IMG/VR virus record: IMGVR_UViG_3300032323_003671
Span: 1-64,000 of that record
Length of the DNA: 64,000 nt
Origin: a virus
Direction: 5' to 3' (one strand)
Shown: piece after piece, positions 19,194-43,363 of the stretch
Numbering within the stretch: position 1 is the first letter of the stretch
How the letters are laid out: each line of letters begins with the position of its first letter
Translations under genes and position numbers: made by a program
Notes under the pieces: generated by a model
Seen by the model: the letters and a program-made list of their open reading frames with translations, nothing else
What the model was told of the DNA's origin: nothing
Databases searched by the model: none

Positions 19194-22100
19194 TTGAAAA
19201 AGATAAAAAAAACTAGCGATGCCAAGGATGGAGGACTATTTGTTGGCAAATCACATGACGATGGTGGGATTCCTGCTATAGTTGTAGATACTGGACAACC
19301 TATTGAGGTTGAAGGTGGTGAAGCTATTATTAATAAAAAGGCCACAGCCAAACACTGGAAAGAATTATCAAAAATCAATCAAAGTACTGGTGGCGTTCCA
19401 ATTCCTCCTCCTGATCGAGCAGATGAACTTATGGACAAGTTTGAAAAGGGAGGAAAGTTAACTCAATTGGAGAAAAAAACTATTCACAACAAGTGGAAAA
19501 ACTTGGTGAATATGACATACACTGAATTGAGAAAGTATTATGATTCCAAAGATGGCAAAACTAGTGGCTTAACTCAAAAAGAAGCTGATGATTTAGGTAT
19601 TGATTCAGGTCGTGAAAGTGCTGTATGGATCATGAAAATGAAACGCACAAACTACAAGGATTGGACACCTGAAATGTGGCGTTGGGCTAAAAAACAAATA
19701 AGTTTTATATCTCGAATGAGAGGTAACCAAGGCGAGTTAATGGAAAATGGCAGAAGAACTCCAAAATTAAAATCATTATTGATTTGGGGTCATAATCCTT
19801 ACAAATATGCAGGAGGCGGAGACATTCCAGCTGAAGCAAAGTATCCAGTTGATGCAAATTCTCTTCAAGTAATGCTTAAATATGCATCAAAAGAAGATGC
19901 ACCTGCTATTCAGGAACAAATAGCCAAACTTAAACAAGAACATAAAGAAAAGTACCAAAAGAATCGGAAAAAATATAAAGGAGGTGGTAAACCATCGGAT
20001 ATTGCCTCTGCAATACTTGGATTGAAAGCACTTTTGAAATATCCAGAATTACTAGAAAAATTTGATAAGGAAAATATAGAATACACTATCAAAGGATTAG
20101 AAATTCTTGATAAAATGCATCCTTCTGAAATTGATCCTAACGATACAAGTAGTGGAGTGAAATTTATTCCATACAAGGATTACGAAATAATGTATGATCC
20201 ATATACTAAAAACTACTATGCTAACGATGCTGAATTTGATTCTTTAGAAGATGCAAAAGCATTTTTAGATTCAGGTAAAATTTCTGATTCAATTAGAGGT
20301 GCAATGCATTATGAAGTGTATGGATATTCAAAAGGTGGGTCAGTAAATAATCAAACACTTTTAGCACCAAATGGTAAACCAACTAAATTAACTCCAGAAC
20401 AATACAAATTAGTTCGTACACCAGAATTCAAAGCCTGGTTTGGAGATTGGGAAAATGATCCTGAAAGCGCAAGTAAGGTAGTTGATAGTAATGGTGAGCC
20501 TAAAATATATTATCAAGGCGTACCATATTATCTATATCCTAATGGAAAATTTATTTACGAAAAAGATAATAATGGAATATTTTTTACATCTGATAAAAGA
20601 ATCGCTTTAACATATGGGGTAGTAAAAGAAGTATTCATCAATTGCAGAAATCCAAAAGATATCAGAAATTATTTTGGATTCGATGGTAAAAAAATACCGA
20701 ATAGTGTCAGAAATGATAGAAACTATGATTTTAAATCGGAAGAAGAAATCCAATATGCCAATTCAGATAAAGAAGTCATTAAATTTTATAAGGAAGTTAT
20801 CAATAAGTATGGTAAACCCATTGAAATAACTGTTGATTCTACTGGTGAAAAATTCAAATTTAAGAGTGTAGAAGAAATAAAAAAATTCTTAATTCCAACT
20901 TCAGAAAAAGGATTTTCATTTTTGAATTTTACACGTAGAAGTCTTTTTTGGAATTGGATAGCAGAATATATTAAAAATTCTGAATACGATGGGATATTTG
21001 CAACTGATGAAGATCGTCTTTCTGAAGAAATATCAGATAGTGTAGTTGTTTATAATTCTAATCAAATAAAACTTGCAGATGGAACGAATACTACTTTTGA
21101 TTCTGAAAATCCTGATATTCGATTTGAAGATGGAGGATCAGTAAATAATCAACCACTTTTAGCACCAAATGGTAAACCAAGTAATCTATCGCCAGAACAA
21201 TACAAATTAGTTCGCACACTAGAATTCAAAGCATGGTTTGGCGATTGGGAAAAATTGATTCAAGTCAAAATGAATGATTCTGCTATAGATGAAATTTCTC
21301 TGAAAAAAATATCAGATACAGTAAGTAAGGTCGTGGATTCAAATGGCGAACCTATGGTGGTTTATCACACAACTGACAAAGAATTTTTTATTTTCGATAA
21401 AAAAAAATCAAAAGAAGGATTCTTTTTCTCACCTCAAAAAGAAAGACTTTCAGTATATAATAAATCAAAAATAGGTCAGTATTTTTTAAATGTAAAAAAT
21501 CCTTCTCACGAATTGTTTAAATCAGATGTGAATTATATTTTATCGAAAGGATACGATGGAATTATGGATTATGGCCATGCAAGAAAAATAAATGAATCCT
21601 TGTATGAAATAATTGTTTTCGAACCTAATCAAATAAAACTTGCAGATGGAACGAATACTACTTTTGATTCTGAAAATCCTGATATTCGATTTGAAGATGG
21701 TGGCAAGACTGATTTAACATACAAAGAAAAATACAACAAGAAATATGGGTATGATTTGGATAAGTCTCACAGTCTTGAAGAAATAGCATCAAAAACAGGT
21801 ATTTCACTTGAAGGGCTTCAAGAAATTTTCAATAAAGGTGTGGGTGCTTATAGAACAAATCCTGAAAGCGTTAGACCAAATGTAAAATCTCCAGAACAAT
21901 GGGGAATGGCTAGAGTTTATAGCGCAGTCATGGGCGGTAAAACAGCAAAGATAGATTCAAAAGAACTTAAAATGGAAGGCGGAGGCAAAACCGATTCAGA
22001 AATGAATATAGAAAGATACGTTGTCAAACCTAGAGTAAAATTTGGGATGGTATTTGGGTATGTTGTTTACGATAATTTAGAAAAAAAGAATTTGCCTTAT

Positions 22101-22607
22101 GATTATGATGAAGATGAACAATGGAAAGCTCAATCAAAAGCAGATTTACAAAACGAATTGGAGAAAAATCGTTTAAATAAAATGGAAGAAGGTGGCGTAA
22201 CAGATAAAAAAGATACAGTAACCTTAGATATTCCATTACTCATAAGATTATTAGAATTATCAAGAGAAGACATTCAATCAGATGCTGACTTACACAAGGT
22301 TGTAGAAAATATGCTCGATTTAAAAAATAAGGAGGTCTTAACAATGGAGGATTATGATAAAATTTCTCAAATCGCAAAAGAAAAATTAATTTCCCAAGCG
22401 CATTATAATTTGACAAGAAAACAAGGCCGACCTGAATACGCACCGAATTCACGTGAAATTGAAGCAGAGATTGAAAGAATGATAAATACAGAAAAATCAA
22501 AATTTGCCGATGGTGGAATACTAGAATCTGATACAATGGTAGTTCTACAATCACCAACTGAAATGTTGGATGAAATCAACTTTAATGCACAATTTAAACC
22601 AGAATAA
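19194..22607 (+). CDS. modular polyvalent protein (DUF3140-like, two ART-PolyVal-like, DUF5824-like modules)
   Basis: VNMT..EL...SLLIWGHNP; two copies of RT.EFKAWFGDWE...KVVDSNGEP...NQIK; TGISL...GVGAY...EQWGMARV; modules separated by [FYM]xxGG. Confidence 0.75.
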   Translation: MKKIKKTSDAKDGGLFVGKSHDDGGIPAIVVDTGQPIEVEGGEAIINKKATAKHWKELSKINQSTGGVPIPPPDRADELMDKFEKGGKLTQLEKKTIHNKWKNLVNMTYTELRKYYDSKDGKTSGLTQKEADDLGIDSGRESAVWIMKMKRTNYKDWTPEMWRWAKKQISFISRMRGNQGELMENGRRTPKLKSLLIWGHNPYKYAGGGDIPAEAKYPVDANSLQVMLKYASKEDAPAIQEQIAKLKQEHKEKYQKNRKKYKGGGKPSDIASAILGLKALLKYPELLEKFDKENIEYTIKGLEILDKMHPSEIDPNDTSSGVKFIPYKDYEIMYDPYTKNYYANDAEFDSLEDAKAFLDSGKISDSIRGAMHYEVYGYSKGGSVNNQTLLAPNGKPTKLTPEQYKLVRTPEFKAWFGDWENDPESASKVVDSNGEPKIYYQGVPYYLYPNGKFIYEKDNNGIFFTSDKRIALTYGVVKEVFINCRNPKDIRNYFGFDGKKIPNSVRNDRNYDFKSEEEIQYANSDKEVIKFYKEVINKYGKPIEITVDSTGEKFKFKSVEEIKKFLIPTSEKGFSFLNFTRRSLFWNWIAEYIKNSEYDGIFATDEDRLSEEISDSVVVYNSNQIKLADGTNTTFDSENPDIRFEDGGSVNNQPLLAPNGKPSNLSPEQYKLVRTLEFKAWFGDWEKLIQVKMNDSAIDEISLKKISDTVSKVVDSNGEPMVVYHTTDKEFFIFDKKKSKEGFFFSPQKERLSVYNKSKIGQYFLNVKNPSHELFKSDVNYILSKGYDGIMDYGHARKINESLYEIIVFEPNQIKLADGTNTTFDSENPDIRFEDGGKTDLTYKEKYNKKYGYDLDKSHSLEEIASKTGISLEGLQEIFNKGVGAYRTNPESVRPNVKSPEQWGMARVYSAVMGGKTAKIDSKELKMEGGGKTDSEMNIERYVVKPRVKFGMVFGYVVYDNLEKKNLPYDYDEDEQWKAQSKADLQNELEKNRLNKMEEGGVTDKKDTVTLDIPLLIRLLELSREDIQSDADLHKVVENMLDLKNKEVLTMEDYDKISQIAKEKLISQAHYNLTRKQGRPEYAPNSREIEAEIERMINTEKSKFADGGILESDTMVVLQSPTEMLDEINFNAQFKPE
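21058..21700 (+). repeat. 76-bp identical direct repeat (21058-21133 = 21625-21700) in the duplicated ART-like module
   Basis: CTAATCAAATAAAACTTGCAGATGG...GATTTGAAGATGG occurs twice; module 5' ends (~20340 and ~21138) are also near-identical. Confidence 0.9.
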
Positions 22608-22610
22608 TAA

Positions 22611-25600
22611 ATGGAAGCCCAAGATATTCAAAAACAGGTAGAAGAAAGATTAAAAGCTCAACAAGAAGGCAAGGAATTCAAAGACATTGGTAAGGTTGCA
22701 TATACTAAAAAAGAAATGGCAGCCTACAGATTAATATCATCAAAAATGCTTGTGGATTTAGAAGTAGATCCTACAATAGCATTTAACATGGTCAAAAAAG
22801 AAAATGTTTGGCCTGCATATAATGTTCAAGAATTAAAAGAAAAAGGTGTTTCTAGTGGTGCTGCATTTATGATGGTTAAATTAAGGACATCAGTTCCTAA
22901 TAAACCTGAAAACTCTCCAAATAAGAGATCAAGTTATGTTCATTTTTTAGAATTACTTCAATCAGATTTACAAAAGTGTATGACTTACTCTGATGTTTAC
23001 AATTTGGCTCAAGAGTATCAAAAAATGCCATTGGATAAATTGATTGAATACTTTATCGATCCATCTATTTTCCAGATGGATGAAGAAAATAGAATACTTG
23101 TTTTAGAAAAAGCCAAAAATAATCCTTCTATTCAGAAATTTACAAGTCGAGGATCTATATATAATTTATTTAAAGAAGTATTTGCAACAACATTTGCAAA
23201 TCTCATTTTTAACAAGACAGATGCAACTAATGCAGTATGGTATCAAGCTAGAGAATTTGCAGCACTTTCAGAAGAAGATTCTAAAACGCTTATTGACAAA
23301 CAAATTGAATCGACAAAAAAGCAAGTAGAAGAAAATAATGCTGAAATTGAAAAAATCAAATCTGCATCATTTTCAGAACTAAAAAAAATAGCTGAAAAAT
23401 ATTACAGATTAAGTTCAGCAGCTAAAAAAATATACTATAGTGATCAACCTAAGTTGATGGAATTTCTATTAGAAACCTTTCAAAGGAAAAATCAAAGGAG
23501 GGAGCTTGAACTTGCGGCATACAAACAAAAATATTCTCCAAGGTTAGAGGATTGGAGTTGGTTTGAAAAACCTAAAACTGAATCAGATACTCCAACAAAA
23601 AAGAGAGAGAAATCTATTAATACCAAAGAACCTTTATCTTATATAAAAAGAATAGGTGGATATAAAATAAACACTGTCAAGGCACAAGAAATTATTGATT
23701 TATTTGGTTTTTCAGCTGTCAATTATGGAAAATATGTTGATGATGCCTGGTCGAAGCAACACACTAAACATTTTTTAGGTGCAATTTCAGATTTAGGTGA
23801 TGTTTTAAACATTGATATTAAAAAAGTAAATGAGATAGGTGGATTGTCTATTGCTTTTGGTGCGAAAGGTATTGCTGGACACATGGCAACATATTTTTCT
23901 CAAAGTCATGATATAAATCTTACTAGAGGAAATGGAGATGGTTCAGTTGCTCATGAATGGGGACATTATTTTGATAACATACTTTGTGATTTATCTGAAA
24001 AGAAAGCAGAACCAAAATTTGCATCAGCATCAAAAGCTGATAACGCAAGTATATCTGATATAGTTTCAAAAATAATGAACTTTATTTATAAAGGAGATCC
24101 AGAATATACCCCTAGAATTCCAATGACTTTTTATGCCAAAAAGTCTAGTTCTGTACCTTCGTATTATAGTTATAAATATGGCAATCAGTCTATAAAAATT
24201 TTAGATACTATTGAAGAAACGTTAGATCAGTATTTAGATTTAGCAGAAGTAAATAGAGATAGATATAATACTCAGTTAAGAGTTTTTGGATATATCATCG
24301 ATGCCTTCGGTTTGGATAAATATTTGATTCCTATGAAATTGACTACAAGTTATCACTTTCATAAATCTGCTTATTTTTCTTTCGTTTATTCAGGCACAAA
24401 AGAAAATGGTCAGCCTGCAATAATTACTGGTACAAGATCAGCCTATTGGACAAAAAATGTTGAGTTGTTTGCAAGAGCTTGGGAAACAGTAATTCTTAAA
24501 AAATTACTAGACAAAAATAGAGTTAGCAACTATTTAGTTGCTGATATTAATATGCAAGATGTCATTGATGAAAATTGGTTTCAACCTTATCCACAAGGAA
24601 AAGAACTTGAATATCTTGAAACTTTAATTGATGAACTAATAGATGCATTCAAATTAGTTTATTCGGTGGGAGATTTCAATCCACCAAGTAGTATCAGAGA
24701 GGATGAATATTTAGATTTATCTCCGAATACAGATGAAGGTAAAACTGAATCAGGAATGGTAATTGATAAATCAACCGAAACAAAAACAACAACTTTTATT
24801 GAAAACGATAAGGTAGTTGAACAAATTAAAAAACCAAGAAAACCTAGAACAAAGAAAACCGAAGCTGTCTCTCCAGAACCAAGTGTGGCAGCAATTGAAG
24901 AAAATTCTCTAGAATTACAAGAAGATGAAGAACCAAAAGTAGAAGAAATGCAAGAACAAGTAAAAAATGAATCGATTGACGATTCTCAGATAAATGTTTC
25001 TCTTTATGCAAATAATTGGAATCAAGTTCCTATTCGATGGAAAAATGTCAAAGGTATTCGTCCAATAGTAGTCAGTTTAAATCCATTTGATAAAAACCTA
25101 TTAAGTCTTGCAAAAATTATTGTCAATACAAACATTAATTTCACCCCAAAACCAATTTTTAGTGCAATGTCTTTTGATAGCTCTGGAGTAACTTTTACAG
25201 ATGCAAAGAAATTAGTTCATATCGCAGGTGAAAACATAGATTACACAGGAAACTATCCTACTTCTGAAACATCAAAATTTTTTCCAGGTTCAATTGAAAA
25301 ACAAACCAAAGAATTGAATGCTATTCAATATCCGAATTGGAGATCGATAGTACCTAAAGAAAGCAAAGTAGAAAAAATAGAGATTGATAAACTTTATCAG
25401 TATGTTGTAGTTGCACTAAACTATGCAAACAAAATAAATCATACCATTGGATTTAAGTTTAGCAATTCAGATTTTATTGGATTTGATGGTGAGTTTCTAA
25501 AAGACATTTTAGAAGTACTTATGAAACTGCAACATACCAAAGATATCTATGTTCATTGGGCAAGTTCAAGTAGAGCTGTTTTATTTAGTTATGAAAAATC

Positions 25601-27032
25601 AATTGACATTGAAAAATCAACTTATGCGTTATTAATGCCGATGATGTTGCATGATGGTATTAATCAATTAGGTGCATCAGATATTGATTACAAAAAAGAT
25701 TTGAATTGTTATTTTGATTTTTCTGATAATCAAATTTATAATGCCGATGGATCAGTAGCAGACTACAAAGAAAACTATGGAGATGCACCAGGAATGTCTT
25801 TGAATTTAATTTCAATGTTCGCTTCTTTCTTAAAATCAAGTAAATCAAAAAAAGACGCATATTTTTATAGCTACATAAGAGTAGATAACGATAGTATATT
25901 GGTTTCTGATAAGAATACAAGACTTGAAATTCCAAATGATTATGATTTAATAACAGGTCTTTATACTATTGAGAACAATGTTTTAATTCGTGATATTTCT
26001 GCAGATATAGATAACTATTCACTCGAAAAGAGAATAGCTACAAAAGATCCGATATTTGTTGCTAACACAGAGCAATTGCTTTTTTATATGAACAAAATGT
26101 CAAATCACCTATCTGATGATGATGATTTCAGACCTAAATTATCTGGATATATTTTTGAGAAAAAAGATAATCAAGTAAATGCAGTATCTACAGATGCTCA
26201 TACTTTGATCAAACTTGATATCACAAATGCAATTGAATCTTCAATCGATGAATTCAATGTAATTCTTGGGAATGCCACAACATTAATGAATGTTTCAAAA
26301 TCTTGGGATTCAAAAAAAGTTGCGGTTTACATTGATAGTAAGGAAGAAAAATATCGTATCGTTTCAGATAGAATTCATTTTGAAGGTAAATTATATGACA
26401 AAGGCGTTACAAATTGGCGAGCAGTAACTCCAAACATTGTAAATAATCAATTGAAATTTAATGTTAAAGATTTATTCTCTTGTTTGACTAATCCCGAACT
26501 TAAAAAGTATGCCGATAAATTCGGATCAAAAGTAAAAGACCTAGCTTTGTATAACAACTTTAATGAAGTTTATGCGATTTATGATGCAAAAAACAATAAT
26601 GAAAGTATCAAAGTTTGTGATTTAAAATTAAATCATACTGAAATAAACGAGTTGTTTAATATCAATGAATCTTATGTTTTAATAATGCCTGTTGTATTTA
26701 CGAATGGAAATTATTTCAATTTAGGAATAGGCAAACTTGAAGATGTAATGAATTCTATTGGTAAAGAAGAATGTACAGTAGTATATAAGGAATTAAATAG
26801 TGGCTATGTCTTCACTTCTGAAAATCTTTATTACAAAAACTCGGATGTTTACAAACCTGAGAAACCTAAAAAAGTTCAAAAACCAGTTGTCAAACCATCT
26901 GAACCTACTAATCAAAAGCAAGAAATATTAGATGCTTTAACTGGTGCGAAAACACTACTAAAATACGTATCAGGAGAGGATAAATCAAATCTTTCGGCTT
27001 ATATTAGAGGACTTGAAATCCTAATGAAATAA
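22611..27032 (+). CDS. large polyvalent protein: zincin/LPD1-like region plus beta-clamp-like repeats
   Basis: AHEWGHYFD and ELFARAWE; C-half YPNWRSIVP, IGFDGEFLKDIL, LLMPM, DDFRPKLSG...VSTDAHTL. Confidence 0.7.
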   Translation: MEAQDIQKQVEERLKAQQEGKEFKDIGKVAYTKKEMAAYRLISSKMLVDLEVDPTIAFNMVKKENVWPAYNVQELKEKGVSSGAAFMMVKLRTSVPNKPENSPNKRSSYVHFLELLQSDLQKCMTYSDVYNLAQEYQKMPLDKLIEYFIDPSIFQMDEENRILVLEKAKNNPSIQKFTSRGSIYNLFKEVFATTFANLIFNKTDATNAVWYQAREFAALSEEDSKTLIDKQIESTKKQVEENNAEIEKIKSASFSELKKIAEKYYRLSSAAKKIYYSDQPKLMEFLLETFQRKNQRRELELAAYKQKYSPRLEDWSWFEKPKTESDTPTKKREKSINTKEPLSYIKRIGGYKINTVKAQEIIDLFGFSAVNYGKYVDDAWSKQHTKHFLGAISDLGDVLNIDIKKVNEIGGLSIAFGAKGIAGHMATYFSQSHDINLTRGNGDGSVAHEWGHYFDNILCDLSEKKAEPKFASASKADNASISDIVSKIMNFIYKGDPEYTPRIPMTFYAKKSSSVPSYYSYKYGNQSIKILDTIEETLDQYLDLAEVNRDRYNTQLRVFGYIIDAFGLDKYLIPMKLTTSYHFHKSAYFSFVYSGTKENGQPAIITGTRSAYWTKNVELFARAWETVILKKLLDKNRVSNYLVADINMQDVIDENWFQPYPQGKELEYLETLIDELIDAFKLVYSVGDFNPPSSIREDEYLDLSPNTDEGKTESGMVIDKSTETKTTTFIENDKVVEQIKKPRKPRTKKTEAVSPEPSVAAIEENSLELQEDEEPKVEEMQEQVKNESIDDSQINVSLYANNWNQVPIRWKNVKGIRPIVVSLNPFDKNLLSLAKIIVNTNINFTPKPIFSAMSFDSSGVTFTDAKKLVHIAGENIDYTGNYPTSETSKFFPGSIEKQTKELNAIQYPNWRSIVPKESKVEKIEIDKLYQYVVVALNYANKINHTIGFKFSNSDFIGFDGEFLKDILEVLMKLQHTKDIYVHWASSSRAVLFSYEKSIDIEKSTYALLMPMMLHDGINQLGASDIDYKKDLNCYFDFSDNQIYNADGSVADYKENYGDAPGMSLNLISMFASFLKSSKSKKDAYFYSYIRVDNDSILVSDKNTRLEIPNDYDLITGLYTIENNVLIRDISADIDNYSLEKRIATKDPIFVANTEQLLFYMNKMSNHLSDDDDFRPKLSGYIFEKKDNQVNAVSTDAHTLIKLDITNAIESSIDEFNVILGNATTLMNVSKSWDSKKVAVYIDSKEEKYRIVSDRIHFEGKLYDKGVTNWRAVTPNIVNNQLKFNVKDLFSCLTNPELKKYADKFGSKVKDLALYNNFNEVYAIYDAKNNNESIKVCDLKLNHTEINELFNINESYVLIMPVVFTNGNYFNLGIGKLEDVMNSIGKEECTVVYKELNSGYVFTSENLYYKNSDVYKPEKPKKVQKPVVKPSEPTNQKQEILDALTGAKTLLKYVSGEDKSNLSAYIRGLEILMK

Positions 27033-27059
27033 ATAATAACTTTGTTAAAATCTTTTAAA

Positions 27060-27524
27060 ATGAATATTGCAGAAATCAAATCAGACATTCGAGATCTTGA
27101 AGCAGCTATAAAATCTCCTCAAACTCCAGATAACTTTAAAGAAAAAATGAAAGCGCAAGTTGAAGTTCTTAAAGTTAAACTTGAAGAGGCCGAATCCAAA
27201 GCCAAAGAACCAGCACCTGCTGAACCAAAAATTGAGCCGAAAAAAAAAGGTGTTCCATTACCTAAAGATCAACAACAAAAAGTTGAATACGATTGTGATG
27301 AACTAATTGCTCAGGCAAAGGCTAGACGTAAAGCAGCTAAAGAGCGTTCAAAAGCTCCTAAAAAAACCGAAGCGACAAAGAACAAAGAAAAAATCGAAAC
27401 AGTATTTGATAATGTGAAAAAACGTGCAGACGAAAAAGACATTTCAAAAGCAGAAATTGAAAAGCTAATTTCTGAGACAAAAACATTATTAAAATTATTA
27501 GAGACTAAATTATCATCTCTTTAA
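27060..27524 (+). CDS. K/E-rich coiled-coil protein
   Basis: Likely start ATG 27060. Confidence 0.7.
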   Translation: MNIAEIKSDIRDLEAAIKSPQTPDNFKEKMKAQVEVLKVKLEEAESKAKEPAPAEPKIEPKKKGVPLPKDQQQKVEYDCDELIAQAKARRKAAKERSKAPKKTEATKNKEKIETVFDNVKKRADEKDISKAEIEKLISETKTLLKLLETKLSSL

Positions 27525-27541
27525 AATCAAAAGTTCTTATC

Positions 27542-30073
27542 ATGGAATATAAATTGAAATTTGAAAATGGTCGCAGTTGTGAAATTTACTGTGAATCAGA
27601 TGGCAAACCTTTGCAAGATAAAATAAATGCTGCCGAAGAAAGATTTGGTAGTAAAGTAAAAACCATCAATGGCAAAGAAGTAACTGAACATGGTCTTGGT
27701 GGATTCTTAGTTGGTGCGATTATCGGTGGTTTAGCTGGTAATTCTGTATCCAAACAAGGCGTTAAAAAGACTATTAAATCAGTAGGTACAGAAGCCAAAA
27801 AAGTTGTCAAGAAAACAACAACAATTGCAAAAAAAGCAGTTGATGCAGTAAAAAAAAAAGAAGCACCAAAAAGTAAAAAATCAAACTACGTTCCAAATAG
27901 ACTAATTGATTCAATAGAAACAAAGTCAGGAAAAAAGATTGATAATAAGGATATTATCGATGGCGCACATACTAAAAAGAAAATTTTAGTTTCTAAAAAA
28001 AGAGTTGCATCAACTCCAAAAGATATCGATAAAGAAAAAGCACTTAAACTTCAAAGTGATTATCTATCTGCTAGAGAAATTAAAGTAGTAAACACTACCT
28101 ATGGTCGTAAAATCAAAGGATCTGAAATCATTGATGGTGCATACGTCAAAAAAGGTGTTTTTGCCGATGGTGGTTCAATAGAAGGGTTCAATTGGAAATC
28201 ATTTACCATATCTGAGCTTATTGAAGTTCTACCAGAAGATGTTCAATTTCTTTATTTCCAAAGACCTGATAAAAAAGAGTACATTAATTATTCAGATGTA
28301 TTGAAAGATAAATCATTATTGAATACTACATGGACTATTTCAGATTCTGGAGACATGAGTTTATCAAAAGGTTCTGAAAACTTGTACTTGGACATTGTAG
28401 TTTATGATCAGGCTACACGATCAGAGCAAGAAAATAAAATATCAATTTACACAAAAGATAATCATTCAGGATTGAAGAAGTTTGCATCTTCTTTAATTGA
28501 GAAATTCAAATCAGGCGGTAAAACAAAAGATAAATATGAAGGAGATATTGTAGAAATACGTCCTGCTTCTAAAAAATCAAACAAATTCATTATTTGGTCA
28601 GTTAAAAATGATATGATTTGGGCTAATGAAAAATTTGATTCAGTTTCTGAAGCCAAAGAATTTATTGAGCAAAACAAATTAGTTCTAAAAGACTCTTCAA
28701 TCTTTGAAGGCGGAGGCAAAACCGACTATCGCTATGAATACATGTTATTAGATCGTTTACGTCAAGACAATGATTACTTCCTAGGTTTCGGTGCTAGAAA
28801 TCCAAATAGATTGTGGGCAGGTAATGTAGACGAACAAATAGCCGAAATGAAAAAATTGTATAATAGTCTGCCTGAAAAGCCTGAATGGATTACCATGGAG
28901 GATATCGAAGAATATGAACGCAAAATGAAAACCGAAGAAATGGCTAAAGGTGGTGTGATTGGCGACAGTGGTACAATTACTGACACCAAAAGCATGTATC
29001 AAGGAAAGATGGGATTCATTGAGATGGACATGGGCAACGAATGGATTGTTAAAGTTCTGGATAATGGTAAAGAAAAAAGCGTAACAGTTCGTAAATCTGG
29101 ATTTAAAATACTTGAAGACGAAGAGTTTGGTGATGGTGGCAAAACTTCTAAAGAATATAAAATCTTTGAAGGATTTGATCATCTAAAAAAGAAAAATGTC
29201 TATCGAGTTATTGGTGTAGAAAACGATTATGTTGGTGAATGGCATAATACTCGTGAAGAAGCTCAATCTGAGATTGATTCAATGAGTCAAAAATTTGCAT
29301 CAGGTGGGATTGTAGGCAAGGACGTTACATTTAACCACTGGTCTGGTGATATTCGAAAAGGTATCATTACAGAGCAACTTGAAGATGGCCAATATGCAGT
29401 AAGTTCTGGTTATGGTTCAGTTTTAGTTAGTCCTGATGATATAATCTCAACAAGTGAAAGAGTTCCGCAAAAGAAATTCTTAGGAATTTTTGAAAAAGGC
29501 GGTATCGCAAATGATAAAAAAAAGTATGCTAAAGGTGGCAGCATAACATTTTCAGAAGATGATCAAGAAGGATTTGATTATTGGATTGAAGATGGTAATG
29601 CAAGAAAAAATGCAGATGGTACTTATTCCACACAAGATGCTCAATATCGAAATAAATTAACTTTAGATGAGTTAAAAAGATATTTTGTTAAAGAGTATTT
29701 GCCTGATAGCGATTATTTGAATCCAAGAGTTGAATCAAATCTTTTGACTGATGAAGAAAATGATACCTTAAATGAAGAATTAGAATCATTTGAAGACCTA
29801 ATTGATTACAAGGATATAAATACCTTCAGTTCGGGAGGGAATATGAATCACACTATGATTTTGTTAGATAATGGTCATATTTTGACTATTAATTGGGATT
29901 CAAAAGATGTTCAGTATTCTTTAGAAACATATCCTTCTATTGAGCAATATGCTTTTTCAGAAGATGGAGAATCAGGTTGGGATAATGAGTACTACACAGA
30001 AAACTCTGAATCTAGAATGAGTAACTTAAATGATGAAAGTTTATATTCATTTCTTTACAGATTGGTTGATTAA
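27542..30073 (+). CDS. modular polyvalent protein with LPD11-like and SH3-like modules
   Basis: YMLLDRLRQDNDYFLG.G.R...LWAG.V.EQI..MK.L.....EKPEWITME; about nine [FYM]xxGG spacers. Confidence 0.75.
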   Translation: MEYKLKFENGRSCEIYCESDGKPLQDKINAAEERFGSKVKTINGKEVTEHGLGGFLVGAIIGGLAGNSVSKQGVKKTIKSVGTEAKKVVKKTTTIAKKAVDAVKKKEAPKSKKSNYVPNRLIDSIETKSGKKIDNKDIIDGAHTKKKILVSKKRVASTPKDIDKEKALKLQSDYLSAREIKVVNTTYGRKIKGSEIIDGAYVKKGVFADGGSIEGFNWKSFTISELIEVLPEDVQFLYFQRPDKKEYINYSDVLKDKSLLNTTWTISDSGDMSLSKGSENLYLDIVVYDQATRSEQENKISIYTKDNHSGLKKFASSLIEKFKSGGKTKDKYEGDIVEIRPASKKSNKFIIWSVKNDMIWANEKFDSVSEAKEFIEQNKLVLKDSSIFEGGGKTDYRYEYMLLDRLRQDNDYFLGFGARNPNRLWAGNVDEQIAEMKKLYNSLPEKPEWITMEDIEEYERKMKTEEMAKGGVIGDSGTITDTKSMYQGKMGFIEMDMGNEWIVKVLDNGKEKSVTVRKSGFKILEDEEFGDGGKTSKEYKIFEGFDHLKKKNVYRVIGVENDYVGEWHNTREEAQSEIDSMSQKFASGGIVGKDVTFNHWSGDIRKGIITEQLEDGQYAVSSGYGSVLVSPDDIISTSERVPQKKFLGIFEKGGIANDKKKYAKGGSITFSEDDQEGFDYWIEDGNARKNADGTYSTQDAQYRNKLTLDELKRYFVKEYLPDSDYLNPRVESNLLTDEENDTLNEELESFEDLIDYKDINTFSSGGNMNHTMILLDNGHILTINWDSKDVQYSLETYPSIEQYAFSEDGESGWDNEYYTENSESRMSNLNDESLYSFLYRLVD

Positions 30074-30082
30074 AAGCAAATT

Positions 30083-30847
30083 ATGAAAAAAGAAACTATT
30101 GTAAGAAACACAATGCGTGAATTCAAGGAAGGGAAATTGCGTTCATCAAGTGGAGAAAAAGTTACTAGTCGCAAACAGGCGATTGCTATTGCTTTAAGTA
30201 AATCAGGTCAGTCCAAATTTGCTGCAGGTGGTATGGTAGGTCAAAACTTAGTTTTTGATCGTTGGGATGAAAAGTTAGAAGGCCGAATTATTGAAATAAC
30301 TGATTCAGGTGATTATATCGTTTCTTCTGGATCGAGAACTATTCTTGTTAGTCCTGATGATATCATTTCTTATGGAGACATGAAGCCTAAAAAAAGATTT
30401 TCTTTTTTCAAGGATGGTGGCACTACAAGTTCAGAGACGATTCTTTGGGCGGTAAAAGTAGGAGAACCTGATTGGAAAGAAGTTCTGATTACAAATAATC
30501 CAGATAAAATTGATGAAGCTCGAAAATGGGCTTCAGAAAATGGATTTGATAGATTTAGAGTTGCTTCTGTGGATATGTCAAGTCGTCCAGACTTTACCAA
30601 AACTTTTAAAGATGGAGGTGATGTAATGAAATACGATTGGGCTTCAATGTGGAAAAAACCATCTAAGTCTAGTAGAGTTATGATTGGTGATGTTGTTTTT
30701 CAAAAACATTCAGACCAACCTTACAAAATCATTGAATTACTTGATGATCAATACACAGTTGCGAAAATCGTTAATAATGAAGAAACCGAATGGAAAACCT
30801 TCAATAAGGATTTTTATGAGCATCGTATGTTTGAAAAACGTAATTAA
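30083..30847 (+). CDS. modular protein with N-terminal DUF6496-like domain
   Basis: MREFKEGKLRSSSGEKVTSRKQAIAIALS; FAAGG/FKDGG/FKDGG spacers; one module shared with 27542. Confidence 0.75.
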   Translation: MKKETIVRNTMREFKEGKLRSSSGEKVTSRKQAIAIALSKSGQSKFAAGGMVGQNLVFDRWDEKLEGRIIEITDSGDYIVSSGSRTILVSPDDIISYGDMKPKKRFSFFKDGGTTSSETILWAVKVGEPDWKEVLITNNPDKIDEARKWASENGFDRFRVASVDMSSRPDFTKTFKDGGDVMKYDWASMWKKPSKSSRVMIGDVVFQKHSDQPYKIIELLDDQYTVAKIVNNEETEWKTFNKDFYEHRMFEKRN

Positions 30848-30857
30848 TATTTAGGCT

Positions 30858-31565
30858 ATGCTATTTTCAAGAAGCAATTTAAAAACTTTCTTTGATTCGG
30901 TATTAACTGGTGAAAGCAAGACTTATGATGATCACAATTGGTACACTTCTTCAGGATTAAGATCATATATTAGAGGAGTCAATCAGAATCGCAACTCTGC
31001 ATTAAGTAAGGATTTATCTGATACCACTATTGCCGATGTCATGAAATTCCAAAAGAACCAACGTTCTAGCACTTCTGGCCAACTTTGGGCTACTGGAAGG
31101 TATCAGATTATTCCGACAACCTTAAAAGGCCTTGTGGATAACTATAAAATAAATCCAAATCAAAAGTATAGTGAAGCGGTTCAGGATGAACTTGGCGAAA
31201 AACTTTTACTTGGCAGAAGTAATCTTAGGAAGTACTTAAAGAAAGAAGTTCCTGATACCAAAGAAAATCGTGAGAAAGCAGCATTGGATATGGCAAAAAT
31301 ATGGAGTTCTATCGGAGTTCCATACGATATGCAAGGTTCAAGAAAAGCTATTAAGAAAAACCAAAGTTATTATTCTGGAGGTGGTGATACTGCATCTGTA
31401 AAAACCGAAACAGTTCAAGCAGCATTGCAAAAATTACGAAACTCAGATAATACAACACAAGAAAGTCCAAAACCAAATAATAATGGTAAAATTTTGGATA
31501 GTGTTTTCATTGCATTGTTTGTCATTGGATCTTACATTTTCTACAAAAAAATGACATCTATTTAA
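30858..31565 (+). CDS. lysozyme-like muramidase with C-terminal TM
   Basis: GES...ATGRYQIIPTTL...QD...WSS, lambda/GH104-like pattern. Confidence 0.75.
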   Translation: MLFSRSNLKTFFDSVLTGESKTYDDHNWYTSSGLRSYIRGVNQNRNSALSKDLSDTTIADVMKFQKNQRSSTSGQLWATGRYQIIPTTLKGLVDNYKINPNQKYSEAVQDELGEKLLLGRSNLRKYLKKEVPDTKENREKAALDMAKIWSSIGVPYDMQGSRKAIKKNQSYYSGGGDTASVKTETVQAALQKLRNSDNTTQESPKPNNNGKILDSVFIALFVIGSYIFYKKMTSI

Positions 31566-31623
31566 ACTCTATTGTGTAGTTTGAATCATAGATATTGATT
31601 ATATTTGAACAAAATAAATTTGT

Positions 31624-32196
31624 ATGAAATTAGGTATTGAAAAATTAATCGAGGAGCAAAAACTTGATTTGGAAAATTTACCAGCTGATATTCAAAAGCT
31701 GATTACCGATATTAAAAAATCGAAAAGTTCTATTGAATATAGAATTTCAATTGGTCAAAATATCAATCCAAAAACGATTGAAAGTCTCAAAGAAAGAGAC
31801 CAGGAATTGATTGAAAAACTATATGATCATTTAGATATTTCCTCAGACGATGATTCGCAAGAAGAAGAGGAGGAAGAAGATGATGATGATTCAACCGAAG
31901 GTGGCGAGGAAGAAGATGATGATTCACAAGAAGATGAAGAAGACGAAAACCAAGAAGAAAACATGGTAGATTTAAGTAAATACGATGCAAACAAAATAGA
32001 TTCAGAGTTATCTAGTCTGATTGATCAAGGAATCACAGAAATTAACTTTATGGACATTCGTTCTGCATGTCCGCATGCTTATGAACTTTTGTTTGAAGCG
32101 TATGAAGCCAACAAAGAAAACGGAGTTCGTACAACCTTCTATGAAATGATAGAAACGCAACCAAATTCAGAAACATTTAAAATCACAAAATTATGA
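31624..32196 (+). CDS. acidic hypothetical protein
   Basis: Long D/E tract; TATATTTG promoter at 31600-31607. Confidence 0.75.
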   Translation: MKLGIEKLIEEQKLDLENLPADIQKLITDIKKSKSSIEYRISIGQNINPKTIESLKERDQELIEKLYDHLDISSDDDSQEEEEEEDDDDSTEGGEEEDDDSQEDEEDENQEENMVDLSKYDANKIDSELSSLIDQGITEINFMDIRSACPHAYELLFEAYEANKENGVRTTFYEMIETQPNSETFKITKL

Positions 32197-32384
32197 TTGC
32201 AACTTTAAGTTCAAGCATGCCTGCAGCACCAACTTCAACAACAGGAGGCGGTGGCGATAAAACACTTTTAATTGCGGGTATAATCCTTGGTAGCTTTTTA
32301 TTGTATAAATTTGTTATCAAGCCAGAAATGGATAGACAAAAAGCATTAAAATATGAAAATAGCAATGGTGGGGGGCTTGAATAA
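32193..32384 (+). CDS. small membrane protein
   Basis: TLLIAGIILGSFLLYKF. Confidence 0.7.
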   Translation: MIATLSSSMPAAPTSTTGGGGDKTLLIAGIILGSFLLYKFVIKPEMDRQKALKYENSNGGGLE

Positions 32385-32565
32385 AGCTCAAACAATAGGA
32401 TTAATCACAGCAGTAGGTGTATCTTTGGCAGGTATTATTGCGGTAATTGAGTATGTGAATTCAAGAAAACACAGAGAATTACAACGTAAGAATGCTGAAT
32501 TGGAAAATCAAATTAAGCAGTTACAACTTTTGAAGTTGTCAAGCGATTTATCTGGGGAAGTATAA
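32353..32565 (+). CDS. small membrane protein with coiled coil
   Basis: TM segment followed by RELQRKNAELENQIKQL; start uncertain. Confidence 0.65.
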   Translation: MKIAMVGGLNKAQTIGLITAVGVSLAGIIAVIEYVNSRKHRELQRKNAELENQIKQLQLLKLSSDLSGEV

Positions 32566-32831
32566 TCCAAAGCTAAATCCAATAGATAAGCTGTAGTGTA
32601 CCAACGATCACTTTTCTTATTTGAAACTATATAAAATTGGGCGATTAATTTATCACCTATTTTGTAGTTTTTAAATATGTTTTTGAAATATTGAGTTTTT
32701 GTTGATAGGCAAACATTTCTTTCATTTGTCAATCCAACTTTCAAAACTATATTACAAAAGTCTTCGGCCTGATTAATTTCTATCAGTTCACCTTTTACCT
32801 TATTGAAATGTACTTGGTCGTTTTTTATCAT
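32508..32831 (-). CDS. DUF3127-like OB-fold protein
   Basis: VKGELIEI...KIGDKL...F.I.S....RWYT. Confidence 0.5.
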   Translation of the reverse strand: MIKNDQVHFNKVKGELIEINQAEDFCNIVLKVGLTNERNVCLSTKTQYFKNIFKNYKIGDKLIAQFYIVSNKKSDRWYTTAYLLDLALDYTSPDKSLDNFKSCNCLI

Positions 32832-32913
32832 ATCTGGAGATAAAGATAATCATTTCAATCATAATTAGTATATTTGTTCAAAACAGCACAATTAAAATAT
32901 AGAGAAGTGAACA

Positions 32914-33345
32914 ATGGAGAATGAAATTCATAAATCAGTATCTTCATTATTGAAAAACATTTCAGATGGCCTTTCAATGATGTCAATAGACGAATTAAGC
33001 AAAGCTATTTCTGATCTTGTTATCAAGAAAAAGTCAAATGTTGGGGATTTAGATAAATTGTATAACATAGTATGTGTTGAGTATGATGTATCTAAAAAAT
33101 CCTTAAACGAAAAATACTCTAGGGGTAATATTTACTTCGCTAAGATTACTCTTTGGACGATTATGAATAAACACCTGGGCATTTCAAAAAGAAAGATTGC
33201 ATCGATGTTTGAAACTTATCCTAATGCAGTCAATGTAGCGATTTCGTATTTCGAAAAATTGAATCCCCAAAAATTCAAAGCGGATGATAAGTTTCTTTCA
33301 AAATATCAGGTGTGCTTAAACGAATTTTATCAACAAATTAACTAA
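32914..33345 (+). CDS. second DnaA domain IV-like HTH protein
   Basis: IVCVEYDVS...SRG....AK......HLG.S...IA..F; TATATTTG promoter at 32869-32876. Confidence 0.55.
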   Translation: MENEIHKSVSSLLKNISDGLSMMSIDELSKAISDLVIKKKSNVGDLDKLYNIVCVEYDVSKKSLNEKYSRGNIYFAKITLWTIMNKHLGISKRKIASMFETYPNAVNVAISYFEKLNPQKFKADDKFLSKYQVCLNEFYQQIN

Positions 33346-33347
33346 GG

Positions 33348-34514: not shown

Positions 34515-34516
34515 TT

Positions 34517-35356
34517 ATGTCAGATTCAAATCTTAGAGAAGCAGGTATGATGGCCATTACTGGTATTCAAGGTGTCGGAAAGACATACTTGAACCAGCAT
34601 ATTATTTACGACTATGTTCGTGATAAAGTGGCTATTAAAGTACGTGGTAGAAAGTGTCTTATTTTTGATACCAATGGTGAGTACACTAAAAGTCAATTTG
34701 AGAAAAATGGCATGCAAAACTTTGATGCCAAAATCATTGCCATAAAAGACGTTGGTCAATGGAGTAAGTCTCCAGGAATTGAATGCCGAAGAATTGATGC
34801 AAAAACTTTGCCGATCATGCAAAAGCGTGAGGCTATCGAGTATATCATGAGACATTTTAGAAATGGCATGTTAGTACTAGAGGATGTCAACACATATATT
34901 CTCAATGTAACACACATGGAGAAAATTGTATCAGGTCTTGTATCTCTTCGACATAGGGCAGTTGACATTTTGATTTCATATCAGTCTTTGCGTGTAGTAG
35001 AGCCTCGTATTTGGCAAAATAGCCGATGGGTGCGCATGCATTACCAAGCGGATAATGTAAATGATATCAAGGGTAAAGTAAATAACCCTACGATGTTTAA
35101 AATCGCTCAGTACGTTGTAAATAATCGTTATTTCGATGGTGATAAGCGTTTCTATGTTTACATTCACAATTTTGCCAATAAGATCGAAGGTGATTTTACT
35201 TTGGATGAATTCAAAAAAGCATGCGCTCAATATATCAATGCCAACAAGAAGTATTTGAAAGAATATAAAGAAATGAGTAATTGTTCAGATGCCGAAGCTA
35301 TTGAAGGATTAACAAACCAATATATTTCTCAGTATTATGGAAATGACAATCAATAA
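34517..35356 (+). CDS. A32/P9-like FtsK-HerA genome-packaging ATPase
   Basis: Walker A GIQGVGKT, IFDTNGEY, Walker B LVLED, arginine finger LRH, ISYQS...P.I.QN; 279 aa, no nuclease domain. Confidence 0.85.
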   Translation: MSDSNLREAGMMAITGIQGVGKTYLNQHIIYDYVRDKVAIKVRGRKCLIFDTNGEYTKSQFEKNGMQNFDAKIIAIKDVGQWSKSPGIECRRIDAKTLPIMQKREAIEYIMRHFRNGMLVLEDVNTYILNVTHMEKIVSGLVSLRHRAVDILISYQSLRVVEPRIWQNSRWVRMHYQADNVNDIKGKVNNPTMFKIAQYVVNNRYFDGDKRFYVYIHNFANKIEGDFTLDEFKKACAQYINANKKYLKEYKEMSNCSDAEAIEGLTNQYISQYYGNDNQ

Positions 35357-35567: not shown

Positions 35568-35569
35568 GT

Positions 35570-36049: not shown

Positions 36050-36063
36050 ATCTTGAAAATCAG

Positions 36064-37421: not shown

Positions 37422-38174
37422 ATGAACGCAACAGAAAAAGAATTGCATCGCTTTTTAGGGGTAGCTGAAAAAATGTCTGGATACGATGGTATGGACTATG
37501 AAGGCGACCTTTCGTCTTTTGACGATATGGATTTCTTTGATGGTGGAGAAGGTATTAACGACCCGATGTCTTTCGCTGATGGTGGAGCATCAACCGTTAA
37601 CGTTTCTAACCCATACGTTATCCAATATGTTAACTCAACACCAGGTACTCTTACCGCTGTGTTGTTCGGTTACAACAACTTCTTTAATGATCCAACAGGT
37701 CAGTTCGGCAACCCAGTGGGTATCACCGTAACCAACTTGCAAGGTTCATCTTATGCTGCCTTGATTGGTCAGACTTCAAACAAAGCATTCCAAATTGGAA
37801 AATGGCGTTTTCAGTCTGCTTCAGCTGGTCAGTTGAGCCAAACACTTACTGTATCACATTTCGATGCGAACGGTAACCAATACTCAACTCCGTTGAACTT
37901 ATCAATCATGCGTGATGCTTACCAGTTCCAGTCAGATATCTTGGATATCACCAAGGTAATCACAGTGGACGGTAACACTCAAATCACGTTCCCATTGTTA
38001 GCGTTGACTACATTGGTAATCTCTATGTTCCCAGTAAGCGTTGTTAGTACTAAAGCAGTACTTAACGGTGGTATAGCTCTTAACAAAGCAGTTGCTCCAC
38101 GTCTTTCTGGTAAAAACGTAGCACCAGTGATTATCAACACTAATCAAAGAGTTGGTGGCGTAACCAAAGCGTAG
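37422..38174 (+). CDS. candidate major capsid protein (beta-rich, possibly single jelly-roll) with acidic N-terminal propeptide
   Basis: High-expression codon bias (TTC/AAC/ATC/GGT/CGT), own promoter and terminator, near the packaging ATPase, two paralogs; fold not verified. Confidence 0.6.
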   Translation: MNATEKELHRFLGVAEKMSGYDGMDYEGDLSSFDDMDFFDGGEGINDPMSFADGGASTVNVSNPYVIQYVNSTPGTLTAVLFGYNNFFNDPTGQFGNPVGITVTNLQGSSYAALIGQTSNKAFQIGKWRFQSASAGQLSQTLTVSHFDANGNQYSTPLNLSIMRDAYQFQSDILDITKVITVDGNTQITFPLLALTTLVISMFPVSVVSTKAVLNGGIALNKAVAPRLSGKNVAPVIINTNQRVGGVTKA

Positions 38175-42225: not shown

Positions 42226-42587
42226 TTAGTGTAGAAACAGCTCGTCCAGTATATTCAGCTTTTGGTGGTAAGGATCTTACTCCAGAACAAAAGAAAGAAC
42301 GTCAAAAAAAACGTATCGAAAAAGCAAAACAAATCTATCAAACTGCAAAAGAGACAGGTAGCTTAACAGCACTTGAAAATATTGCAATGAGAGCAGGTGC
42401 GCCATTAGCTCCCACAACTGATCCAAACTCAGGTGGTGGTGCAGGTGTTGGCACAAATGGTGATCCAAAAGGAAAAGGATGGGCAGACCTATCTACTCCT
42501 TATAAAGTAGGTATCATTGGTGGCAGCCTTTTAGTTGTAGGTGTAGCTGTTTGGTATTTTGGATTTAGAAACAAAGCAAAGAAGTAA
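42222..42587 (+). CDS. putative virion membrane protein, paralog of 54982
   Basis: MISVETARPVYSAFG vs MIEVNTARPVYSNAIG; basic tract; C-terminal TM. Confidence 0.75.
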   Translation: MISVETARPVYSAFGGKDLTPEQKKERQKKRIEKAKQIYQTAKETGSLTALENIAMRAGAPLAPTTDPNSGGGAGVGTNGDPKGKGWADLSTPYKVGIIGGSLLVVGVAVWYFGFRNKAKK

Positions 42588-43363
42588 TGGAACAAACTTG
42601 GGAAACGGATAAAAGATCGCTTTCCTTGAATGTTTCAATTAAATGTCAAGGCAAATGCAAATTTCGTGTAGTTGCCACAGATTTTAATGTAAACACCAAG
42701 TATGCTGATCGTACAATTGAAGTAGATGGTTTTCGAACAATCTATTTGTCTTTTGTAACATCTCCAGAGAAAGTGAGAATCATTGTAACTCCAAAAGGAG
42801 ATACAAACAACTATTTGGTGGATATCAAAGAGAAACCACTAAAGACATATCAGATTTATCTTGACGAACAAGCGAAGAAATTTGTAAAGTTTGCACAAGA
42901 ATTTTCTAGTGTATGTGGATACTCTAAAGCAACACCACAAGGCCGATTTTTCAGAACTAAGGACAAAGAGTTCTCAATTCGTTTTTATCCTTTCATTTCC
43001 CAAAATGGAAAAGTAAGCACCTCGCCTGCTAGAATTGGCCACAATACTGGTATTATTGACGTATCTAAACTTCATTTTGATAGATATACAATACCAATGA
43101 GAATGATTATTCTTTTACACGAATTTTCTCATAAGTATCGTAATCCTAAGATCGATCTTGAAATATCAAATGAGTTTGGGGCAGATTTAAACGCATTATA
43201 CATATATTTGGGATTAGGTTACTCCAAGGTGGATGCAATCTTTGTTTTTGCTAATGTATTTTTGAAAGCTCAGACCGATCAGAATATAATGCGCATGCGT
43301 AAAATCATGGATTACATTCAGAAATTCGAAAATGGAGAAATCGCCAAACCATTGACAAATTAA
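42587..43363 (+). CDS. zinc metalloprotease (gluzincin-like), candidate maturation protease
   Basis: ILLHEFSH followed by NEFGAD (HExxH...ExxAD). Confidence 0.7.
   Translation: MEQTWETDKRSLSLNVSIKCQGKCKFRVVATDFNVNTKYADRTIEVDGFRTIYLSFVTSPEKVRIIVTPKGDTNNYLVDIKEKPLKTYQIYLDEQAKKFVKFAQEFSSVCGYSKATPQGRFFRTKDKEFSIRFYPFISQNGKVSTSPARIGHNTGIIDVSKLHFDRYTIPMRMIILLHEFSHKYRNPKIDLEISNEFGADLNALYIYLGLGYSKVDAIFVFANVFLKAQTDQNIMRMRKIMDYIQKFENGEIAKPLTN

Follow-up and report, generated by a model that had tools for sequence, protein, structure and literature searches.

Modules of polyvalent proteins joined by a conserved Gly-Gly peptide, a candidate cleavage site, in the genome of an apparently tailless virus

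The gene block and its modular proteins

The stretch of DNA considered here (the window) comprises bases 1-64,000 of IMGVR_UViG_3300032323_003671, a 73,262-base record of an uncultured bacterial virus; its G+C content is low (approximately 0.29-0.37 in 2-kb windows) and the genome is incomplete in the record (48% according to CheckV). Six co-directional genes spanning positions 19194-31565 lie directly upstream of late genes coding for a capsid-like protein, an ATPase and membrane proteins. The four largest genes of this block, which start at 19194, 22611, 27542 and 30083, were translated and their products are designated P0001 (19194), P0002 (27542), P0003 (30083) and P0004 (22611). There is hardly any doubt that P0001, P0002 and P0003 are polyvalent proteins built like beads on a string, whose modules are joined by a conserved peptide with the core [FYM]xxGG, hereafter called the seam, which is under selection as a peptide and represents the joint at which modules are exchanged. 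In these chains a conserved N-terminal segment (the head domain of P0001; a hydrophobic stretch followed by a Lys-rich tract in P0002) precedes autonomous modules of 50-270 residues. Their features, all on the plus strand, are the following.

19194..22607, +: polyvalent protein 1 (P0001), 1137 residues, TTG start; an 87-residue N-terminal head domain followed by nine seam-delimited segments
19440, 19806, 19974, 20325, 21123, 21690, 21972, 22182 and 22503, +: first bases of the P0001 seams ([FYM]xxGG, 15 nt each)
20340-21137 and 21138-21704, +: the two ART-PolyVal modules of P0001, which also contains DUF3140-like and DUF5824-like modules
27542..30073, +: polyvalent protein 2 (P0002), 843 residues; N-terminal glycine-zipper-like stretch and Lys-rich tract, then nine seams
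28160, 28505, 28703, 28940, 29126, 29294, 29489, 29525 and 29825, +: first bases of the P0002 seams
28718-28954, +: LPD11 module of P0002
29309-29503, +: VSPDDIIS module of P0002
30083..30847, +: polyvalent protein 3 (P0003), 254 residues; a DUF6496-like module, a VSPDDIIS module (30233-30421) and two further modules
30218, 30407 and 30605, +: first bases of the P0003 seams

A peptide motif confined to the block

Translation and scanning placed all 21 motifs at the residues listed for them in a preliminary description made from the sequence alone, namely FEKGG 83, YAGGG 205, YKGGG 261, YSKGG 378, FEDGG 644 and 833, MEGGG 927, MEEGG 997 and FADGG 1104 in P0001, FADGG 207, FKSGG 322, FEGGG 388, MAKGG 467, FGDGG 529, FASGG 585, FEKGG 650, YAKGG 662 and FSSGG 762 in P0002, and FAAGG 46 and FKDGG 109 and 175 in P0003. 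In 5000 shuffles per protein the number of sites averaged 0.63, 0.60 and 0.12 and never exceeded 4, 5 and 3, respectively, the observed numbers being 9, 9 and 3; chance is thus excluded for P0001 and P0002, whereas P0003 alone is not significant because its shuffle maximum equals the observed value. P0004 has no site against a shuffle mean of 0.27. Altogether 22 sites occur within the 4102 residues of the six-gene block and 12 within the 17,349 residues encoded by the other 94 open reading frames (ORFs) of the record having at least 80 codons; thus, the enrichment statistics that had been proposed as a check gave an approximately 8-fold higher density than in the rest of the proteome, far above the shuffles. 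Four of the 12 outside sites, all F[IV]GGG, are found in a single glycine-rich protein of 842 residues (47596-50124) having 62 GG dipeptides.

Three further virus records (G001-G003, this record being G000) were found with the capsid-like protein 37422 as query (65-80% identity) and fetched whole; the syntenic block is present in all of them, with [FYM]xxGG densities of 0.32-0.51 per 100 residues inside and 0.025-0.032 outside the block. The extended form of the seam, [KR]-[FYM]-x-x-G-G-x-[IVTL], occurs 43 times in the blocks of the four records (11, 10, 12 and 10, respectively) and never outside them, in the manner of a viral polyprotein whose junctions are marked by one conserved motif absent elsewhere from the proteome. 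Among the 87 [FYM]xxGG sites of the four records the aromatic position is occupied by F in 59, Y in 23 and M in 5, with a preceding K in 45; A, E or K and then D, K or T follow ahead of the Gly-Gly, and V, I, T or L occupies the second position past it in 70. A larger collection, 655 sites from 123 proteins, has I, V, T or L at the latter position in 572 (87%) and K or R ahead of the aromatic position in 321 (49%). At 29489-29539 two seams lie only 12 residues apart (FEKGG IANDKKK YAKGG), and mini-spacers of 6-12 residues are also seen in the relatives; these may be scars of module loss.

It could be argued that the conservation resides in the DNA, the seam being a crossover site and the peptide a by-product of this recombination signal. 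Indeed, exact shared words are longer in seam windows than in random in-frame windows (mean 5.89 vs 5.21 nt), and at least 12 nt are shared by 4 of the 209 seam pairs (maximum 20 nt), a result reached by none of 200 control sets. However, codon choice is free at both glycines as well as at the aromatic position, and conservation of the peptide would by itself account for the excess of shared words. In the 21 seams the first Gly is encoded by GGT (12), GGA (6) or GGC (3) and the second by GGT (7), GGC (7), GGA (4) or GGG (3), a usage similar to the background; the aromatic codons are TTT (11), TAT (4) and TTC (3), and the mean identity over 24 nt is 53%. Mixed codons and low nucleotide identity indicate that selection acts on the peptide and not on the DNA; conservation at the DNA level was accordingly rejected for this genome and a DNA signal is very improbable.

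The seam as a border between modules

Pfam recognizes DUF3140 (residues 101-180), ART-PolyVal (E 5.5e-24) and DUF5824 (842-920) in P0001, LPD11 (397-462, E 1.5e-30) in P0002, DUF6496 (6-40) in P0003 and LPD1 (E 2.3e-12) in P0004. All five domains of the three seam-bearing proteins lie, as judged from their best-scoring stretches, within one seam-bounded segment and none crosses a motif, so that the DUF3140-, ART-, DUF5824-, LPD11- and DUF6496-like domains presumed to sit between the motifs were borne out. The two duplications described together with them were likewise recovered: both copies of the ART module (P0001 residues 383-648 and 649-837) begin just past a motif and end with the same ...NQIKLADGTNTTFDSENPDIRFEDGG, and the VSPDDIIS module is common to P0002 (residues 580-659) and P0003 (residues 41-118) with 42.5% identity. 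The features that characterize polyvalent proteins are present, in that P0001 combines at least two domains of the repertoire (ART-PolyVal, DUF5824 and DUF3140) in one polypeptide, is phage-encoded and belongs to a block which lies directly upstream of virion genes and whose order is syntenic in G001-G003.

Two modules are found elsewhere as whole proteins. The LPD11 module of P0002 (residues 393-466) aligns end to end with the entire gp130 of Cellulophaga phage phi17:2 (70 residues) and with Aeromonas phage Aeh1p155 (85 residues), the termini being at most 5 residues from the seams, and matches positions 12-84 of the 84-position phrog_15551; phi17:2 and Aeh1 are cultured tailed phages in which this module is a stand-alone gene. 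The second instance is within the block itself.

27042..27524, +: stand-alone gene of 160 codons (family F10), whose homologues elsewhere are seam-delimited polyprotein modules

This protein is the free-standing version of a module that is bounded by seams in P0014, P0019 and P0025; alignment with the last two pairs its residue 10 with their residue 216, four residues past a seam ending at 212, and alignment with P0014 pairs the two C-termini. Since modules are whole proteins elsewhere, gene borders and seams are interchangeable, and the autonomy expected of the units of a viral polyprotein is seen in the LPD11 module, in the 27042 product and in Pfam domains that never cross a seam.

Cutting 47 proteins at their seams yielded 351 segments that were clustered into families of nearly constant length (63-71 residues for most members of F1, 46-56 for F6, 64-70 for F7 and 79-84 for F9), whose order differs among proteins. 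P0002 reads F3 F4 F16 F9 F2 F11 F1. F5 F8, and its nearest homologue, P0005 (76% identical), reads F3 F4 F19 F9 F2 F11 F1 F5 F8, thus differing by one exact cassette swap; in an alignment of seven sequences whole modules are inserted or deleted between invariant GG columns. In seam-rich proteins 40% of 114 BLAST alignment ends fall within 10 residues of a seam against 17% at random (0 of 2000 simulations reach this value, the maximum being 32%), a figure that is inflated, the test being biased because the shared seam itself extends the alignments. Comparison of module order, another of the checks proposed at the outset, shows therefore relatives that reorder, swap, duplicate and split modules exactly at the seams, and the suggestion that the motif acts as a shuffling boundary is upheld by the alignment ends, the constant-length families, the cassette swap and the splitting of genes at seams.

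Head domain, cargo and distribution

The first 90 residues of P0001 head 95 database proteins (its own entry included) of 625-1990 residues, 80 of which carry at least three seams, with 434 sites in 91,618 residues. The head domain (19194-19454, residues 1-87) is 64-72% identical across G001-G003, the alignments starting from residue 1. The cargo behind it includes ART-PolyVal, N6 methylase, phosphoadenosine phosphosulfate (PAPS) reductase, ArdA, ParB, RelA/SpoT, RadC and clamp domains, the repertoire that would be expected of delivered counter-defence proteins. The corresponding segment of P0002 (residues 1-211, 27542-28174) is conserved and contains a hydrophobic stretch resembling a glycine zipper (GLGGFLVGAIIGGLAG) and, after it, a tract rich in Lys; this segment might anchor the chain in a membrane or serve as a handle by which the chain binds DNA.

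Among 42 homologues of P0002, 25 have 4-16 seams, one has a single seam and 16, which are LPD11 proteins, have none; since seam counts vary in this way, the seam belongs to a system and not to a domain. The packaging-type ATPase of the window is common to every seam-bearing record that could be placed, i.e., G000-G003 and, at 62-71% identity, G004, G005 and G007, G006 being a 19-kb fragment without this gene. No seam-rich ORF is present in loci L032-L036, found through P0127, and searches for related loci with P0003 and with P0020 as queries found none. Bacteroides phage BF1-TP2 gp68, an ART homologue, is seam-poor (four motifs in 3633 residues), the two cr85_1 RNA polymerase subunits, likewise homologues, have no motif and the 17 crAss001 proteins of gp19-gp46 have no extended motif. 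Since all the placeable seam-bearing records share the ATPase and tailed-phage homologues are seam-poor, in our own tests the seam seems to be the hallmark of one virus lineage among the records examined.

The seam-free polyvalent protein and the late region

The other features of the block and of the late region relevant to the function of the seam are the following.

22611..27032, +: P0004, large polyvalent protein without seams, 1473 residues
23952-23966, +: HEWGH of P0004 (residues 448-452), adjoining its LPD1 domain (residues 609-680)
Residues 1170-1263 of P0004, +: weak DNA-polymerase-III-beta-like (sliding clamp) match
30858..31565, +: last gene of the block, 235 residues; one seam-like YYSGGG (residues 171-176) between the main domain and a C-terminal hydrophobic tail
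34517-35356: small FtsK/HerA-like ATPase, with weak DUF87 and TrwB matches in Pfam
37422..38174, +: capsid-like protein, whose acidic leader ends in MSFADGG (residues 49-55, DNA 37566-37586)
42587..43363, +: candidate HExxH protein, 258 residues; LHEF[SA]H...E.GAD, with a downstream Glu, behind an N-terminal beta-sandwich

The clamp-like match lies in the C-terminal half of P0004 (25000-27032; DNA_pol3_beta_2, E 2.7e-4), and clamp domains are clearly recognizable (PF02767 and PF00712) in relatives that share the head domain of P0001. No Pfam family matches the product of the last gene of the block at an E value of 0.01 or below. A hydrophobic tail at the C-terminus is a feature of many small proteins encoded within 30858-47063. 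None of the nine late-region proteins tried matches a PHROG, and Pfam scans of the window proteins revealed no terminase, portal or tail family; the weak FtsK/HerA-type ATPase matches and the lack of PHROG matches in these nine proteins suggest that the virus is apparently tailless and membrane-containing. In a batch Pfam search of 61 ORFs of the window, an APS kinase and two sulfotransferase families were matched, probably by 59355-60565 on the minus strand, where ORF 60098-60565 has a P-loop; together with the PAPS-reductase modules in the polyvalent proteins of relatives these matches hint at a sulfur- or PAPS-related theme.

The leader of the capsid-like protein had also been adduced as a bearer of the motif. 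FADGG does occur at residues 51-55 of this protein, but the link to the seams is weak: the relatives have MSFADGS, MSYASGT and MSFASGS where the window has MSFADGG and, since the second Gly is thus not conserved, the argument drawn from the leader is not supported. The leader fits instead a second motif, S-[NFY]-A-x-G, with 7, 5, 12 and 6 copies in the four records; 1000 shuffles gave averages of 0.5-1.1 and at most 4-5 copies. Almost all of the copies in the records belong to virion-module proteins. Copies are seen in 37422-56490 (e.g., in 38250, 39211, 40705, 54434 and 54982) and in the counterparts of G001-G003, the motif often separating an acidic leader from a segment that is basic or membrane-associated. 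This motif may mark maturation cuts of structural proteins and, since seam and second motif share [FYN]-x-x-G, one could speculate that a single enzyme serves both.

Is the seam a cleavage site?

The interpretation adopted here, to which a probability of roughly 0.45 is assigned, is that the seam is the recognition site of an endopeptidase and that the chains, made late and carried with the DNA, are cut into small proteins. The chains would be synthesized next to the virion genes, would enter the next host with the DNA and would then be cut at or beside the Gly-Gly to yield free small proteins (ADP-ribosyltransferases, LPD11, DUF3140, DUF6496 and others) acting on host defence and metabolism. 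The residues constrained on both sides of the Gly-Gly suggest that both sides are read, as occurs at protease subsites. The best encoded candidate for the cutter would be the HExxH protein 42587, a host enzyme being a possible alternative.

In the 42587 protein the signature LHEF[SA]H...E.GAD is invariant in the four records; homologues at 53-56% identity are present in G004 and G007, and an HExxH...E protein is found in the virion module of all six records that reach that far. Being the sole protease-like gene conserved in the lineage, it is a candidate for the processing enzyme; an Atlas search, in which its family has more than 300 members, gave a lead, and only a lead, to a DUF4344 metallopeptidase (score 0.88). 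If the same enzyme also cut S-[NFY]-A-x-G, the shared core could be, speculatively, [FYMN]-x-x-G with cleavage after the first Gly. An elaborate version of the processing scheme, rather unlikely as a whole, would have a lineage of large, tailless, membrane-containing bacterial viruses ship its early and counter-defence proteins inside the particle as true polyproteins behind a loading domain, to be cut in the new host by a new zinc-type virion protease of the 42587 family at an eight-residue Gly-Gly code that doubles as plug-in joint for any small gene, the enzyme also trimming S-[NFY]-A-x-G; in tailed phages, by contrast, such proteins are encoded by dozens of separate small genes.

Several observations weigh against cleavage. 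A Pfam scan of 78 ORFs of the window (17 singly and 61 as a batch) detected no processing protease, the only peptidases being M15/VanY wall hydrolases. The 42587 protein has no sequence match in the PDB at E 10 or better and its only Pfam match is DUF4932 at E 0.043, while its AlphaFold model has a mean predicted local distance difference test (pLDDT) score of 52.7, with 30-45 in the catalytic HExxH half; Foldseek matched only a generic beta-sandwich at E 2e-3 or worse and is uninformative, so that sequence and fold searches do not confirm a peptidase. The zincin of P0004, which had been named among the enzymes to be tried, is not supported as a general protease, since HEWGH is not kept in two of the three relatives (the proteins corresponding to P0004 in G001 and G003 lack a HExxH of this type); none of the Pfam peptidase models matches P0004. 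Furthermore, this multidomain protein of 1473 residues, encoded by the same genome, does without seams. To these points must be added the bias of the alignment-end test and the structural data discussed below.

The preliminary description had modelled the mechanism on adenovirus and African swine fever virus (ASFV), i.e., on a cysteine protease of the adenain/Ulp1 family that cuts after Gly-Gly. In favor of such an enzyme one may quote the hydrophobic residue upstream of the Gly-Gly, the many sites per precursor and the tailless, membrane-containing look of the virus; however, a six-frame search of the 73-kb record for Peptidase_C5 (PF00770), C48 (PF02902) and C39 (PF03412) gave no match with an E value of 1 or below, and the hydrophobic residue stands three, not two, positions before the first Gly, one position off the (M/L/I)xGG consensus. 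As a mechanism this analogy is not supported and an adenain-like protease is hardly credible here, even though, since the record is incomplete, the absence of a protease is not proven.

The main rival to processing, a possibility that deserves to be taken seriously although held only tentatively, is that the seam is never cut and consists of a helix stop and a flexible Gly-Gly hinge, i.e., a standard in-frame cassette joint, the chains remaining whole as tethered multi-enzyme strings. The AlphaFold model of P0002 bears on this point, weak as it is overall (mean pLDDT 45, with 512 of the 843 residues, or 61%, below 50). The confident blocks (residues 212-322, 334-383, 396-463 and 590-638) are bounded by seams, which favors the seam as a module border and is the agreement between motif positions and structure predictions that had been asked for, and five of the nine low-to-high transitions begin 0-7 residues past the last Gly of a seam; all nine seams lie in stretches with pLDDT <50, which is only mildly informative because 61% of the residues do so. 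Of the nine seams, three come immediately at the end of a predicted helix (H308-324, H452-468 and H570-586), the aromatic residue closing its last turn, and with Lys before and Gly-Gly after it the seam resembles an ordinary glycine helix cap, which needs no protease. The K/R before the seam and the beta-branched residue or Leu two positions after it likewise fit glycine C-capping patterns, and an uncleaved joint explains all the shuffling evidence equally well. Furthermore, the main text of PMC5512222 relates that the virion RNA polymerase of N4 undergoes no processing for packaging and that ArdC and TraC1 remain full length on transfer. On the other hand, for a hinge there is no need to constrain eight positions throughout hundreds of unrelated modules (655 sites), some seams come after modules rich in beta structure (e.g., after residues 634-637), the seam-free P0004 and the 16 seam-free LPD11 proteins demonstrate that strings of domains need no seam, and the modules exist as free small proteins in other phages.

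The seam could also be neither cut nor a mere hinge but a docking or packing handle, bound by a chaperone or by a virion component (inner membrane, capsid interior or DNA-delivery device) so as to provide multivalent loading. A repeated short linear motif with basic residues upstream would suit this role; the head domain of P0001 itself contains three GG turns (DGGLF, DGGIP and EGGEA), one of its weak matches, P0133 (E 2e-4), carries the tape-measure family PF10145, and FATGG (733-737) and YATGG (778-782) of lambda gpH lie in the C-terminal region which, according to the account of this protein in PMC12617516, stays bound to the tail tip. Yet one signal per protein would suffice, whereas the chains have nine each, exactly at module borders, and the BLAST comparison of the head domain with gpH is not significant (E 0.22). 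A docking handle is therefore improbable.

Significance

Polyvalent proteins are a known class, and what this locus bears on is the manner in which their parts separate and evolve. It offers a precise rule, namely one eight-residue seam per joint, absent from the proteome elsewhere and kept while modules come and go. Were the seam cut, polyprotein processing would be clearly exemplified in a DNA virus of bacteria and a new protease specificity would be indicated, and dozens of modules of 50-120 residues could be read as individual delivered effectors, i.e., as a catalogue of candidate anti-defence proteins. Were it not cut, the seam would still be a plug-and-play linker of natural origin from which domain borders can be read to the exact residue, of help in annotation and in the design of multi-domain proteins. 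The 30083 product, with 254 residues and three seams, is a convenient test substrate.

Comparison with known systems

In double-glycine leaders, C39 peptidase domains cut after Gly-Gly with hydrophobic positions upstream, the leader being single, N-terminal and tied to export; no C39 match was found here in six frames. The adenovirus protease has the site consensus (M/L/I)-x-G-G|x. This enzyme and ASFV pS273R make many cuts by a Gly-Gly that follows a hydrophobic residue, in proteins carried inside the particle, a behaviour that in the present case is only predicted; the differences are that two residues, and not one, separate the hydrophobic residue from the Gly-Gly at all 87 sites and that the six-frame search detected neither a C5 nor a C48 homologue.

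Packaged proteins are also processed in T4 and the phiKZ-like phages: T4 gp21 cuts Alt and internal proteins, and phiKZ-like phages likewise process packaged proteins. In both cases the prohead protease trims effectors co-injected with the DNA, including an ADP-ribosyltransferase, at a short motif shared with head proteins. Unlike the seam, these motifs end in Glu and are cut by the serine protease of tailed-phage heads in single proteins having a leader, not in chains of exchangeable modules; moreover, in the present virus the head proteins have a motif of their own, S-[NFY]-A-x-G, distinct from the seam.

Cutting of the T5 tape-measure protein pb2 reportedly involves the host, as the title of a 1973 paper has it. 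The 92-residue pb2C boundary of this protein is FVPR|AEGG, which is not a seam. According to the passages on these proteins in PMC12617516, lambda gpH is converted into gpH* and gpHC by removal of a piece of approximately 14 kDa from its glycine-rich C-terminal region, site and catalyst being stated there to be unknown, and T5 pb2 into pb2* and pb2C (see also bioRxiv 10.1101/2022.09.20.507954). The parallel with these tape measures, in which a Gly-rich C-terminal region is cut, is suggestive, FATGG and YATGG both lying in this region of gpH; in lambda and T5, however, each protein is cut once and modules are not shuffled.

Among known systems the closest to the chains described here is that of the polyvalent proteins which phages and conjugative elements encode (Iyer, Burroughs, Anand, de Souza and Aravind 2017, PMC5512222), predicted to travel with the DNA and proposed to be processed by zincin metallopeptidases. 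The main text of that article does not contain "linker", "glycine" or "boundar" and defines no junction motif; full-text literature searching found no description of the seam, although the supplements of PMC5512222 might hold alignments showing it. Both groups consist of multi-domain strings with ART-PolyVal, LPD1, LPD11 and an HExxH domain, here a putative zincin, in a phage. Compared with the proteins presented in that main text, those of this locus are distinguished by modules mostly of 50-120 residues, by one fixed eight-residue seam and by their occurrence in an apparently tailless virus.

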